Source of the DNA: a virus
Lineage: Duplodnaviria > Heunggongvirae > Uroviricota > Caudoviricetes
Virus record (IMG/VR): IMGVR_UViG_646564533_000015
Coordinates: 1-57,176 of that record
Reading direction: 5' to 3' (one strand)
Length of the DNA: 57,176 nt
In this document: positions 52,501 to 57,176 of the stretch, piece after piece
Layout: each line of letters opens with the position of its first letter
How positions within the stretch are numbered: position 1 is the first letter of the stretch
Program-made: the position numbers

Positions 52501-55500
52501 TGATTCAACGTGGTCAGATATACACCGATAGCGCCGGCTATCCGATAAAAATTCTTCGCTGCATAAACAACACTGTGTTGTACAGAAGAATGGATGGGCG
52601 AACACAGTCGGTAAAAATAAACGATTTTAATGAACTGTTTGAACGGATTGATCACCAGGAATACCGACAAATTCTGGCAGAAACAGAGCAGGAAGCTCAT
52701 CTGAAAAAATTACGAGCCATGAAAAGGAAGTAAAGAATGAATAAAGCATTTGAACGATGGGTCCACCAGCGTTACGGCAATCACTATGACCTGACGCGAG
52801 ATGGTGACGGTTTCTACTGTCGTGAAGTTGTGAAGCGAATGTTTGACGTGTGGTGCCACTGCCATGGGCTGAGTGTTGTGTGAGGTGATGTATGGGGCTG
52901 GATTGCGTGCCTATATCAACCTACTGCCGCGACGCGGGAGAAACGGTTGATGCCGTTAACAAACGGATACAAAGAGGAATATGGAAAGAAGGGGTTCATG
53001 TATTAAAAGTCGATGGAGTTAAAGAACGCTGGGTCGACTTAATAGAGGTTTCAAAATGGGCAAGAAAGAACAAGGATTATTATCTCTGCCAAGAGGAGTA
53101 ACTATTCGTAAGCATAAAACTGCTTCAACACTAGTTATCACTTTCACATATAAAGGGGTTCTTTGCAGGGAGCCCCTGTCTCGGCTTGAGGCAAATACAC
53201 GTGGTATTAAATATGCTGAGCGCCTGCTAGGGGAGATACAAAATCAGATCGCCAGCGGAACGTTTGAATATGCGAAATATTTCCCCAGTTCCAAAAAACT
53301 GGAGTTATTCGGTATAGTAAAGAAAACCAAAAATATTAAGTCCTATCTTGATGAATACCTGAAAATTTGCATGAACCGCAATCTGTCGCCGTCAACCATT
53401 GGCGGTTACGAAAAATGTATATCAGCACTATCAGAGCTACATAAACTACATGTAACAGAATTGACGCCTGCGGTACTAAAAAATTGGATAGCCAGCCGAA
53501 AAACTAAGCTGAAAACAATCAGGAATAACCTGTCATTTCTGCGCAGCGCCATTGATGAGGCTGTAACTGATGGCCTGTTGACTATTAACCCGGTAACTCT
53601 TGTCAGCGCCAGCCGGTATCACGTGGTCGACAGTAAACCGAACGCCGACGATTACGAAGTTGATCCGTTTGCGCCTGCGGAAACCAGTGCCATATATCAG
53701 CACTGCAAGTATCAGGAATGGCAGAATCTGTTCCGCTTCGCCTTCAATACAGGGCTACGCAGCTCTGAGCTATGCGCATTACGTTGGACCGATATCGACT
53801 TTATAGGTAATACAGCGCACATACAGGCAGCCAGTGTCGTAGGCATATTGAAAGGCACCAAAACAAAAGCAGGCACCCGTAAAGTGAAATTAAACAGTGA
53901 GGCTCTGGCGGCTCTGCAAGCACAAAAGCAATTCACATTCATGAAAAGCGAGTTCATATTCAGTGACCCCAAAACGAAAGAGCCTTGGGCGAACGCTGAT
54001 GCAATCCGCAAAAAAGCATGGGTTCCCACCCTTAAAAAAGCCGGTGTCCGTTACCGTAACCCCTACCAGACGCGACACACGTTCGCCACGCGGCACATCA
54101 GCCAAGGTGTAAATCTATTCTGGCTTGCTGGCCAGATGGGCCACAAAGGACCGGAAATGCTGTTCCGACATTATGGTCGCTACCTTTCGGCCTATGATGG
54201 CAAAACGTCACTTGATAACCATGCACAACATTTTACGTGATCGCCCTATGCGCGCGTTTCCAATCACAAACATAGCAAAACTGAAGACCACCTTGATTAA
54301 AAAAATAAGCTATCATCTATGTAATCAATAGGTAAAAAAACAGTGCAAACCACCAAATAAAACATTAAAAATCATGATGTTACACATTAGCAAGAAACAA
54401 TACAAAAACATTTCACTTGACTTATCTTAATATTATGATTTTAAAGAAAAATATTTTTTTAACAAGACAGTGTATGGACTGTGATAGTACTTGAAGAGTG
54501 GTAGTACAAGCTGTTATCCTTTGCTCCACAAATACAAGATTTTGTTGTTTTTTGATTTTCAATCACTTAGCGTATCAGCGGCGAAACGCAATAACTGGAG
54601 TCCACTATGAAAAAAACCCTAGCAGTAGGTTTTGGTGAAGGTTAACTTCTGATCTTTACTATTTAAAAAAACGCTCTCCATTAGCACAACAAGACCTCCT
54701 CATGGAGGTCTTTTGTTATAGGAAACAAAGAGATGGCAAGGATTATTGTCAACATCAGCGCAACAGTTTTCACCCTTATGCTCTTATTTAGGGCATTGTT
54801 CACTTACATTTATCCAGACACACTTCCTTTCGATATAGCTATCATCGACTGGCTTGTCGTAGCTTCAGGTTCAGGTGCTGCCATTTCTTCTATCTTCTGC
54901 TTTATCAAAAAACGCTACCCCGATACAGCAGAATTTTTACCGATGTTCAGCACAATTTGTTATGTGATCGTGCTGATCGGATACGCAATATTAAGGTACA
55001 CCCCCACATATCAAACCTCATTGTCAATAATGGTTACAGGGATGTTAGTTGGTATGGGATGGTGGATACAGTGCATTACTTCTGCAGCCAATACTCGCAG
55101 ATCACATACCCTGAACATGATCATTAACACGCGAACCAGCCCGGAATACCAGAAACAATTAAGAAACAGCACCGCTTTCTATCGAGGTATGCGCTATGTA
55201 CCACAAGAACTTTCAGAATGGCGATGCAACCCTGATAAAGACGAATATAAGAATATGAAAGTACCGGAAGAATATCGCGACGCAATTAATGGGCTTCTAT
55301 ATATTCTTAACTACTTTGAGTTTCTTGCCCAAGGGATCAAATTCAAAGATTTAGATGACGGGTTACTAAAAGAATGTTTCTCAAGCTTCCTAAGAGGCAT
55401 CGAGAGGCGAGGGTTTCACATGATCTTAGAGTCGCAAAAGCAAGATCCAGCAGCATTTGAAGGAATTATTTATCTTTCTAAAAAATGGAATGGTTCATCA

Positions 55501-57176
55501 TTTGTAGAAACTCACCGATCAAACCCAAATACTGTTGAACTTGGTATCCCTTATCCTTCAAACGAAATTGTTGAGAAAATGGTGAAGGGCATCCCCATCC
55601 TTGAGGAAGAACCAGCGCCAGAGTTACATCTTGCCTCCGAAACAGAGACTCAGTAATGACACAAGAGGGATATCAATATGCACGTAAAATGCACTTAGCC
55701 AGTATCAAAACTTAATAACTAAATATATTCAATGAGTTATGCTATTTTCGGACACGGGTTCAACTCCCGCCAGCTCCACCACTTTTTAGTTGTTTGAAGT
55801 ACAATGAAGTCTACTAAGCCCGCACAGCACAAGCTCTGCGGGCTTTTTTACGTCTATTGTCGTCCAGTGAGAATTGCTGAGAACTACGAGTTATGGCACC
55901 CTGAATGAGACCCACTAAGAAGGGTCCAAAAACCGAGGGTCCCAAAATGGCAAAAATCGCTAAGAAGCTCACTGACACTGAAATCAAAAGCACCAAGCCA
56001 GCCGACAAAGAAATCAACTTGTTTGACGGAGATGGTTTGATACTACGAATCGCTCCCCTCTCGAAAGGAGGAAAGAAGAATTGGTATTTCAGGTATGCAG
56101 TGCCAGTGAGTAAAAAAAGAACCAAAATGAGCCTTGGGACCTATCCTCACCTTACACTGGCAAGAGCCAGAGCCTTACGTGATGAATATCTTTCCTTTCT
56201 GGCAAATGGTGTTGATCCACAAATCCATAACAACGATAAGGCGAAGGCATTAAAGAGTGCTACTGAGCACACTCTCCAAGCCGTAGCGCGGAAATGGTTA
56301 GATGAGAAGGTAAAGACATCAGGTATCTCACAAGACCATGCAGCAGACATCTGGCGCAGCTTAGAGAGAAATGTCTTTCCTGGTCTGGGTAATGTCCCTA
56401 TCAATGAGATCCGGCCTAAGCTCTTAAAACAACACCTTGATCCTATTAAGCAACGAGGCGTATTGGAAACTCTACGCCGTATCATTTCACGTCTGAATGA
56501 AATCTTCAGGTGGGCAGCTACTGAAGAACTTATTGAGTTCAACCCGGCTGACAACCTTGGTCAAAGATTCAGTAAACCAAAAAAGCAAAATATGCCTGCC
56601 CTTCCCCCAAGCGAATTGCCAAGGTTTATGGAATCTTTGACGAATGCGTCAATCCGGTTGGAAACACGTATGCTAATTGAATGGCAATTGTTGACATGGG
56701 TTCGTCCGGGTGAAGCCGTTCGCGCAAGATGGTCTGATATTGATACAACCAACAGCATTTGGAACATTCCTGCTGATTTCATGAAAATGAAAAAGCCTCA
56801 CAAAGTTCCTTTGAGTAAAGAAGCTTTGCGCATCCTTGAATTAATGAAATCAATAAGTGGGCATAGAGAATGGGTTTTCCCCAGCATTAAAGCGCCTCTT
56901 AATCATATGCATGAACAAACAGCCAACGCAGCTATCATCCGAATGGGGTTCGGAGGCGAGCTTGTAGCTCACGGTATGCGTTCTATTGCGCGAACAGCGG
57001 CAGAGGAGTCTGGTAAATTCAGAGCTGAAGTTCTTGAGGCAGCGCTTGCCCACTCGAAAAAAGATGAAATTATCGCAGCATACAATCGTGCAGAATATCT
57101 GATAGAGCGACAGAGTTTGATGCAATGGTGGAGTGATTACGTTCAAGCTCAAAGATCAAATGCTCTGGTAGCCTAA

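Follow-up and report, generated by a model that had tools for sequence, protein, structure and literature searches.

The 57,176 bp stretch of DNA analyzed here (positions 1 to 57,176 of IMG/VR record IMGVR_UViG_646564533_000015, referred to throughout as the window) derives from Escherichia coli O55:H7 CB9615 (NC_013941.1, 100% identity), and spans from smpB-ssrA through a complete lambdoid prophage integrated at ssrA and into a second integrase island. Between the integrase gene (int) and the right attachment site (attR) of this prophage there is a single gene, in the same orientation as int and the pL operon, which codes for a membrane protein with a DUF4760 domain and is preceded by a very short open reading frame (the micro-ORF) and an intrinsic transcription terminator. 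It is the final prophage gene ahead of attR, since attR, a copy of the ssrA 3′ end, lies at 55746–55785. The features of this interval, all on the + strand, are as follows.

53056–54240, +: tyrosine integrase gene int (Arm-DNA-bind_2 and Phage_integrase domains; Pfam and RefSeq), the last gene of the pL-side operon
54241–54606, +: AT-rich spacer with a presumed promoter (33.5% G+C for the spacer; allele alignment)
54412–54439 and 54459–54488, +: promoter-like sites, the latter with a TG before the -10 (consensus scan, prediction only)
54597–54600, +: Shine-Dalgarno sequence GGAG, 6 nt 5′ of the micro-ORF ATG (sequence)
54607–54645, +: leader micro-ORF MKKTLAVGFGEG-stop, 12 codons plus TAA (peptide-level conservation)
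54633–54661, +: predicted small hairpin between the 3′ end of the leader ORF (its last three codons and stop) and the 12 nt that follow (RNAfold minimum free energy and centroid structures)
54691–54720, +: intrinsic terminator with a 9 bp stem AAGACCTCC/GGAGGTCTT, loop TCAT and a T-rich tail (terminator scan)
54733–55656, +: DUF4760 protein gene, 307 aa, WP_000101041.1 (ORF call and RefSeq)
54739–54804, 54835–54903, 54931–54996 and 55021–55083, +: transmembrane (TM) helices TM1 to TM4 (hydrophobicity)
55084–55605, +: cytoplasmic helical domain, followed at 55606–55653 by a disordered acidic and Pro-containing tail (composition and AlphaFold2)
55746–55785, +: attR, duplicated ssrA 3′ end, 40 nt with one mismatch to attL (repeat; sub-threshold Rfam tmRNA match)

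The leader region

The spacer between int and the DUF4760 gene is 492 bp long and has a G+C content of 33.5%, compared with 41.1% in the gene, 46.1% in int and 51.3% in the prophage. An earlier reading of this DNA (the original prediction) had described a spacer of ~490 bp that was AT-rich and non-coding; the length and composition are as it stated, but the spacer is not simply non-coding, as it holds both the micro-ORF and the terminator. The micro-ORF (ATG AAA AAA ACC CTA GCA GTA GGT TTT GGT GAA GGT TAA) ends in the motif (V/I)-G-(F/Y/V)-G-(E/A)-G-stop, which is conserved at the peptide level. Only about 12 nt separate the T-rich tail of the terminator from the DUF4760 ATG (54733), too few for a promoter, and production of the protein therefore depends on transcription that begins further upstream and continues past the terminator.

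Comparison with the diverged allele of an O26 strain, which is 78% identical at the DNA level, shows the micro-ORF retained as MKKTLTVGFGEG-stop, with four of the five codon differences between the CB9615 and O26 leaders being synonymous, and the terminator hairpin retained by way of a G-U change. A block at ~54466–54540 is better conserved between diverged alleles than is the coding sequence. Small hairpins comparable to that at 54633–54661 are also predicted around the stop codons of the O26 and Stutzerimonas leaders, and a ribosome that has reached the last codons of the micro-ORF would open up the predicted CB9615 structure. Rfam searches of the spacer returned hairpin-only matches below threshold (Phe_leader, E 0.5; STnc180, E 0.62), and known RNA families were accordingly rejected as an identity for the leader element. 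A CI-operator-like half-site in the spacer was also set aside, being too weak in such AT-rich DNA and not conserved in the O26 allele. Tandem repeats of the toxI kind are absent from 54241–54740.

Conservation of the leader-terminator pair

The same arrangement of micro-ORF, terminator and gene is present upstream of every closer homologue examined, with terminator sequences that are unrelated to one another. Leader peptides, each followed directly by a stop codon, include MQNFEIGYGEG in Cronobacter, MKLETGVGAG in Pseudomonas aeruginosa, MNVGFGEG in Stutzerimonas and MDKTFAVGFGEG in Shewanella. The 39 unique leaders have several properties in common. First, the micro-ORFs are 7–18 aa long, and 33 of them have a Shine-Dalgarno-like motif. 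Second, positions -5, -3 and -1 from the stop are always Gly, with the codons varying among GGT, GGC, GGA and GGG. Third, position -4 is occupied by Phe, Tyr, Val or Ile, again with synonymous variation, and position -6 is mostly Val or Ile. Finally, all three stop codons are used (TAA in 31, TAG in six and TGA in two). The invariant Gly pattern together with synonymous codon drift points to selection acting on the peptide. We also note that where Glu is present at position -2 it is encoded by GAA in 29 of 29 instances, and that the last Gly codon is only GGT or GGC while the other Gly codons drift freely (54637–54645 in the window); this restriction is a nucleotide- or tRNA-level constraint atop the peptide-level one.

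Both strands of the 2.44 Mb of DNA that was fetched were scanned for ATG-started micro-ORFs of up to 30 aa that end in G.G.G-stop. There are 107 of these, of which 104 have a terminator within 90 nt, the other three being background cases. The 104 leader-terminator pairs are distributed one per locus, all on the strand of the DUF4760 gene, and there is exactly one in the 57 kb window. Of 41 unique leaders, 39 have a hairpin followed by a T-run, and the inner stem takes 16 different sequences; that stems differ wholly between clades and yet always pair amounts to covariation. Relatives with only 22–32% identity keep the micro-ORF, mostly with a G-x-G close to the stop, and the endings of these distant variants include DGYGIG, DGYGIS, GIGLG, HGSGCG, DGVGKG, DGIGRI, EGFGNC, EGSGLI, IGC(D/E)E, NGVEG and EGIGGA, all directly before the stop codon and all with a hairpin or terminator behind them except EGFGNC (locus L167).

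The linkage is also evident from the opposite direction. An exact-pattern scan of 2.9 million viral contigs for a coding string for VGFGEG-stop yields 30 matches, of which 24 are directly upstream of a DUF4760 gene. One of the 30 is a bona fide unit of Shine-Dalgarno sequence, MVGFGEG-stop and terminator that has no DUF4760 gene; it is located at 1783–1850 of locus L153 (IMG/VR 2974644047_000001), where a Shine-Dalgarno sequence precedes ATG GTT GGT TTC GGT GAA GGT TAA and a strong terminator follows 7 nt on. This stand-alone unit is either a remnant or a sign that the leader can work alone or with other cargo. Rfam contains no family for the micro-ORF-terminator element, and literature searches returned nothing on the peptide motifs or on leader-controlled phage defense; as far as the databases and literature searched show, both the element and its family-wide linkage are undescribed.

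The DUF4760 protein

The protein has hydrophobic segments at residues 3–24, 35–57, 67–88 and 97–117, and the distribution of Lys and Arg indicates a topology with both termini inside and a cytoplasmic C-terminal domain of ~170 aa. The full-length AlphaFold2 model, built from a 44-sequence alignment, is all-helical with a mean confidence (pLDDT) of 83; modeled alone, the C-terminal domain (residues 116–292) reaches a pLDDT of 92 and a predicted template modeling score of 0.86, with residues 292–307 disordered. Much of this had been anticipated, as the original prediction placed a 307-residue protein with four N-terminal TM helices and a soluble C-terminal domain of ~170 aa as the last gene before attR, and noted a gene more AT-rich than the phage backbone; each of these statements agrees with the ORF call, RefSeq, base composition (41.1% against 51.3% G+C), hydrophobicity, charge and structural models. 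Its view that the protein belongs to no placeable family is incorrect. The protein matches Pfam PF15956 (DUF4760) at 55.7 bits against a cut-off of 25 (E 7.9e-15), with residues 106–252 covering profile positions 8–141 of 141, and the RefSeq name is identical.

An exhaustive phmmer search against 1.84 billion cluster representatives found 385 clusters at E≤1e-3. Full-length close relatives, at 50–90% identity, are present in Enterobacteria, Pseudomonas, Stutzerimonas, Shewanella and Halomonas. In an alignment of 145 sequences (144 cluster representatives and the query), only the last TM helix and the domain after it are conserved family-wide, and the number of TM helices varies from one to four by clade. 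The near-invariant residues are G109, W110, R122, H125, T126, N128, R134, S136, N193, E196, F197, D206, D208 and W252, and G109, W110, H125, R134, N193, E196, F197, D208 and W252 are kept in at least 88% of the 145 sequences. The query thus has the architecture of the family, with a G-W in its C-terminal TM helix and then a helical domain with N..EF and D.D motifs, and in fuller form it carries the signature of G-W in the last TM helix, R..HT.N...R.S, LN(Y/F)(Y/F)EF.A.GI, DLD and a W near the end. Relative to DUF4760 members of ~150–240 aa, such as gp21 of Acinetobacter phage TRS1, its subfamily has three additional N-terminal TM helices and a longer domain. Of the conserved residues, most of the charged and polar ones belong to the cytoplasmic extension of the TM4 helix and would therefore lie at the inner membrane face. 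A comparison of the CB9615 and O26 alleles gives a nonsynonymous divergence (dN) of 0.085 and a saturated synonymous divergence (dS); the gene is old and under strong purifying selection.

Other searches add little to the family assignment. PHROGs matches are to families of unknown function only (PHROG 8946, 21275 and 2284), NCBIfam gives no match, sequence and profile searches of the PDB give no match, and the Pfam matches at E≤1 comprise DUF4760, 4HB_MCP_1 (0.2) and MFS_1 (0.25), with no SieB, RexB, Imm or holin family; these searches led only to DUF4760 or to families of unknown function. A second, profile-based homologue search found no further distant, named or fused relatives, and the literature on DUF4760 amounted to one incidental mention, with nothing found for PF15956. 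HEPN-like Rx4-6H motifs at RRSH (122–125) and ERRGFH (224–229) were rejected because the spacing is wrong and only R122, H125 and R134 are conserved family-wide. By sequence and architecture the protein is not a member of the EP domain family of plant EDS1, PAD4 and SAG101: Pfam gives no match to that domain, and the N-terminus consists of four TM helices and not an alpha/beta hydrolase.

Cargo slots and distribution

The int type of CB9615 is carried by 97 of 5,426 complete E. coli genomes, and at least 83 of the 97, a figure that includes many clonally related Shiga toxin-producing E. coli genomes, have a DUF4760 gene behind int. The carriers include enterohemorrhagic and enteropathogenic lineages O55:H7, O157:H-, O26, O103 and O111. 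The remaining int-attR slots contain unrelated genes or none: E110019 has two minus-strand genes, A41 has three, and 25-07233 has no gene. The int-attR junction is thus a variable cargo slot, as originally predicted, and the DUF4760 gene is not a fixed component of all related prophages. Conversely, prophages that share int and DUF4760 have differing early regions. The slot cargo of E110019 (locus L015, 5221–6245) encodes two hypothetical proteins, and that of A41 (locus L016, 5169–6991) consists of three minus-strand genes, among them one for a DUF4325 STAS-like protein and one with a weak HATPase_c_2 match (anti-sigma-kinase-like). PADLOC gave no match to either, and these genes may be uncharacterized accessory or defense modules.

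More broadly, the gene is found in four distinct accessory slots of unrelated temperate phages. The first is the int-att interval, occupied in E. coli, in Cronobacter at two different chromosomal sites and, in reverse orientation, in a genome with the distant relative P0061. The second is at the opposite prophage end, where it is the first gene past tRNA-Leu in P. aeruginosa and phage Riah, and the first past the tmRNA gene in P. putida, P. granadensis and Enterobacter EA-1. The third is the Q-to-holin interval, on the opposite strand, and the fourth is the interval between the tail chaperone and tape measure genes of Acinetobacter phages TRS1 and Vieuvirus. The cassette always has one protein gene, without a recurrent protein partner, and its hosts include environmental taxa (Pseudomonas, Shewanella, Halomonas and Massilia). 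Presence or absence at module boundaries and deviant base composition, two of the marks of a moron, both apply here; they support the cargo-slot idea without thereby demonstrating defense. Cassettes recur at ssrA-integrated prophages (loci L030, L032 and L034, of Enterobacter EA-1, P. granadensis and P. putida, in addition to the window at 698–1060). This may reflect the mere commonness of ssrA as an attachment site, but the recurrence is of note for a gene apparently gated by translation termination.

Prophage setting

The prophage follows the gene order of lambda. Its + strand carries cI (45211–45861), cIII, kil, gam, bet, exo, xis and int (53056–54240), and the - strand carries cro, cII, O/P, nin, Q, the lysis genes and the head and tail genes. 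The remaining integration features are as follows.

698–1060, +: ssrA (tmRNA) gene (ARAGORN)
1025–1064, +: attL, the ssrA 3′ end, 40 nt (repeat common to attR)
1156–1169: 14-mer CACGTGAAATGCAC adjoining attL, partner of the copy at 55681–55694 (repeat search)
55681–55694, +: 14-mer CACGTAAAATGCAC, candidate arm-type Int site of attP (repeat search; putative function)

The 14-mer, CACGT(G/A)AAATGCAC, is thus present in one copy near each prophage end, on both sides of the att core, and the two copies are candidate arm-type sites. A second tyrosine integrase gene (Arm-DNA-bind_3, Phage_int_M and Phage_integrase) follows directly after attR at 55905–57176 (RefSeq coding sequence 55947–57176) and is annotated as CP4-57 IntA-like in phi467; given that it starts right past attR, two integrative elements are arranged in tandem at ssrA. 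The cargo of this second island is strain-dependent, with His-Xaa-Ser radical-SAM genes and a frameshifted DUF6119 gene in CB9615, and a response-regulator receiver and an ATP-binding protein in O26. A partial Rfam match to the Salmonella small RNA IsrM at 55772–55849 (56.6 bits against a gathering score of 376, and thus far below threshold) extends over the last part of the att core and the terminator of ssrA, and is most likely shared ssrA-flanking sequence and not an IsrM gene.

At the opposite end of the prophage (2079–2669 and 4214–4786) RefSeq annotates type III secretion effector morons, EspM2 and a member of the NleG family, with pseudogenized neighbors; both ends of the prophage are therefore cargo zones. 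The interval from Q to the lysis genes (34648–37922), which is the position of the Shiga toxin locus in related phages, has three tRNA genes, assigned as Arg-tct, Arg-tcg and Met-cat by ARAGORN, with RefSeq giving the last as Ile, together with genes for a TerB-family protein, DUF3927 and a SASA-family esterase, and an ISEc31 insertion (33318–34531).

A possible ribosome-dependent switch

The order of elements suggests an expression cassette in which a promoter in the AT-rich spacer would be followed by a translated leader, an intrinsic terminator and finally the DUF4760 gene with its inner-membrane product, with read-through set in cis by a ribosome on the leader. Two of the components expected of an attenuator are present, in that a Shine-Dalgarno sequence (GGAG, 6 nt before the ATG) leads a short ORF, and a terminator separates that leader from the gene. 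The conservation of the last six residues, their fixed register to the stop codon, and the shortness of peptides that could not leave the exit tunnel are together the signature of a nascent-peptide effect acting in cis near termination, as is also the case for tnaC and the short drug-dependent leaders. We propose that a nascent peptide ending in G-hydrophobic-G-x-Gly-stop would cause the ribosome to dwell at or near the stop codon, and that ribosome occupancy just 5′ of the hairpin would decide whether the terminator forms, giving an attenuator that reports on the state of translation. In bacterial as well as eukaryotic assays, peptide release is slowest when the C-terminal residue is Gly (PMC10802582, citing Pierson et al. 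2016), and a ribosome would therefore be expected to dwell at the stop codon of the leader. In Pseudomonas-type leaders the terminator stem starts 7–16 nt past the stop, inside or adjoining the ribosome footprint, and a dwelling ribosome could directly block the hairpin. In the E. coli-type leaders the gap is 39–45 nt, and a relay through secondary structure, via the predicted hairpin at 54633–54661, is suggested. The switch could respond to release-factor activity, to tRNA-Gly, to a small molecule or to the availability of ribosomes in general. We infer the ribosome-dependent attenuator role of the leader, as well as the direction of control, and consider it likely that the locus is an autonomous cassette with a leader attenuator.

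The protein itself would be anchored by its last TM helix, presenting a conserved polar juxtamembrane surface (R122, H125, T126, N128, R134, S136, N193, E196, D206 and D208) at the cytoplasmic face of the membrane, where it would most likely act as a conditionally produced effector that benefits the lysogen. Occurrence only in slots of prophages and mobile genetic elements, a broad host range, the single-gene format, the membrane anchor, the polar surface and gated transcription all argue for a costly, conditional effector, and because the conserved leader and terminator argue for conditional expression, an inducible or abortive function fits better than an always-on superinfection exclusion. 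Interference with competing phages, by abortive infection or inducible exclusion, is the likeliest of the purposes considered, plausible without being assured, and the explanation that best covers the whole, a leader-gated moron cassette whose effector aborts or excludes competing phages, is one that we put forward tentatively.

Several observations weigh against this explanation. Between stop codon and terminator stem there are 7 to 45 nt, depending on the leader, and simple steric occlusion cannot hold in the E. coli leaders where the gap is 45 nt. No conserved antiterminator was found with RNAalifold on 24 leaders or RNAfold on seven, which yielded only the small hairpin over the leader stop codon, and that in some leaders. 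(RNAalifold did propose a 5 bp long-range helix pairing leader and terminator, but with a folding term of +0.05 and a total of -0.51 kcal/mol it was rejected, and it arises because the leader end resembles the 5′ arm of the terminator.) Promoter consensus matches in the spacer are no commoner than in shuffled sequence. As to defense, no known defense, exclusion or toxin family was matched in Pfam, PADLOC, PHROGs or NCBIfam; the PADLOC comparison proposed with the original prediction (PADLOC-DB v2.0.0) has as its sole match a noise-level one to DrmMII (E 0.01, 12.6 bits), and while the structural modeling proposed with it gave a confident domain (pLDDT 92), fold searches of the PDB and BFVD gave generic helical matches only. 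With no family match, and with alternative slot cargo that is not known defense, it is location and architecture that the defense claim is built on. Defense genes are moreover usually under post-translational control, and one gated by a terminator would be unusual. Lastly, N-antiterminated transcription from pL could express the gene during lytic growth, which weakens a purely lysogenic view: if lambda is a guide, polymerase modified by N would pass the leader terminator, as the cassette is co-oriented with the pL operon. This route cannot be general, given that in Pseudomonas and in the Q-holin slot the cassette runs against phage transcription.

Alternative explanations

The order of a small upstream element, a terminator and an effector gene would also suit a toxin-antitoxin-like module, in which a short-lived micro-ORF peptide acts in trans to inhibit or partner the DUF4760 protein. 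The terminator would then serve only to keep the ratio of peptide to protein high, much like its counterpart between toxI and toxN in ToxIN, and shut-off of host expression would lead to peptide decay and unleash the membrane protein. Conservation at the peptide level, the change of motif along with DUF4760 clade, and the variation of 7–45 nt between stop and terminator, more easily accommodated if geometry is irrelevant, are all compatible with such a module. We nonetheless think it unlikely, as some of the peptides are only 7–8 aa (MSGFGEG, MNVGFGEG, MKIGTGAG), which is very short for a stable trans-acting ligand in the Gram-negative cytoplasm, the motif is held in register with the stop codon, like that of cis-acting arrest peptides, a leader and terminator exist without a DUF4760 gene (locus L153), and there are no tandem RNA repeats of the toxI type. 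The gene could otherwise be one of lysogenic conversion with no part in phage defense, specifying a translation-stress-inducible membrane protein under control like that of cat, erm and cmlA, and helping the host against ribosome-targeting compounds, envelope stress, or limitation of glycine or tRNA-Gly. A short leader peptide with a hairpin is the classic control of antibiotic-inducible genes, and the richness of the leader in Gly codons, the many environmental hosts (Pseudomonas, Shewanella, Halomonas and Massilia) and the lack of a defense family match are all in keeping with this. But a protein with one to four TM helices depending on clade is unlike any transporter, resistance enzyme or ribosome-protection factor, and the family is found almost only in accessory slots of prophages and mobile elements, so that this role too is doubtful, if somewhat less so than the preceding one.

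Two further possibilities we regard as improbable. Constitutive superinfection exclusion of the SieA, SieB, Imm or gp15 type, which comes near to the original prediction, with a low steady level of protein blocking DNA entry from the cytoplasmic side and the hairpin merely insulating the gene from int transcription or stabilizing its RNA, would suit an inner-membrane protein at a prophage end, in an orientation and position typical of lysogen-expressed morons and in a variable slot; a terminator about 12 nt before the start codon and a micro-ORF, both conserved family-wide, are hard to reconcile with it, and Pfam at E≤1 has no exclusion family among the matches. A role in the phage's own cycle (timing of lysis, establishment of lysogeny, or excision), with expression from pL, pI or late transcripts, has no better prospects. 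Here and in Cronobacter the gene follows xis-int at the end of the pL operon in the same orientation, and it adjoins the lysis cassette in Pseudomonas and one enterobacterial phage, but its position and orientation vary between phages, it is on the opposite strand when beside lysis genes, closely related prophages lack it, and it has a conserved control region of its own; core life-cycle genes do not hop between four slots.

Returning to the leader-gated effector, a more far-reaching form of the proposal is that the G-hydrophobic-G-x-x-stop micro-ORF is a new class of sequence-specific termination arrest peptide. It would sense changes that infection or stress brings about in the translation apparatus (in release-factor, tRNA-Gly or ribosome status, for example), with antitermination switching on DUF4760 proteins as a widespread, hitherto unrecognized family of membrane-anchored prophage immunity effectors, and with a cytoplasmic domain that is distantly EP-like and may bind a small-molecule signal. 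We consider this rather unlikely.

Significance

That the gene is annotated as encoding a DUF was already known; what is added is the combination of a moron position with control resembling that by an attenuating leader peptide. Temperate phages of Enterobacteria, Pseudomonas, Acinetobacter, Shewanella and others repeatedly carry a DUF4760 gene as single-gene cargo, and every clade has the same kind of control, a Gly-rich micro-ORF in fixed register to its stop and a terminator abutting the gene. Such an element suggests a costly or toxic product that is made only on a translational cue. If that cue is phage infection, then this would be a defense gene gated by ribosome-dependent attenuation, a mode of control not found described for phage defense in the literature searched; if it is not, the leader peptides still form a hitherto undescribed bacterial family, marked by a very short and conserved arrest-like motif. 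In either case, DNA called non-coding beside prophage morons can hold the most informative part of a locus, and the leader hypothesis is immediately testable, offering a cheap experimental handle.

Comparison with known systems

ToxIN, a type III toxin-antitoxin system that acts by abortive infection, has a layout of promoter, small upstream element, Rho-independent terminator and effector gene, and is found on mobile elements. The DUF4760 cassette is laid out in a similar way, but its upstream element is a translated-looking micro-ORF and not a set of RNA repeats, its effector is a membrane protein and not an endoribonuclease, and there is no sequence relationship. Among phage morons (gtrABC of P22 and SfV, oac of Sf6, rexAB, sieB, bor and lom of lambda, gp15 of HK97, and old, tin and fun of P2) there are parallels in AT-richness, independent orientation and a variable slot, the product here being a membrane protein; the DUF4760 protein differs in lacking homology to any of these, in having a cytoplasmic soluble domain, unlike the O-antigen modification enzymes, and in being terminator-gated. 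RexB, SieB and T4 Imm are small multi-TM inner-membrane phage proteins that benefit the lysogen, RexB having four TM helices, but in the DUF4760 family only the last TM helix is conserved, along with a 170 aa cytoplasmic domain that those proteins do not have.

A further resemblance is to the leader-peptide attenuators (trpL, pheL and hisL; pyrL; tnaC; cat, cmlA and erm), which likewise have a Shine-Dalgarno-led short ORF and then a terminator directly 5′ of the gene, and in the case of tnaC and the drug-dependent leaders also have amino-acid-level conservation of the peptide near its stop. The DUF4760 leaders have no run of one regulatory codon of the biosynthetic kind, and we found no conserved antiterminator in them. 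They also stand apart in that G-hydrophobic-G-x-x-stop matches no Rfam leader, and in that the gene under control is a phage moron and not one for biosynthesis or resistance.

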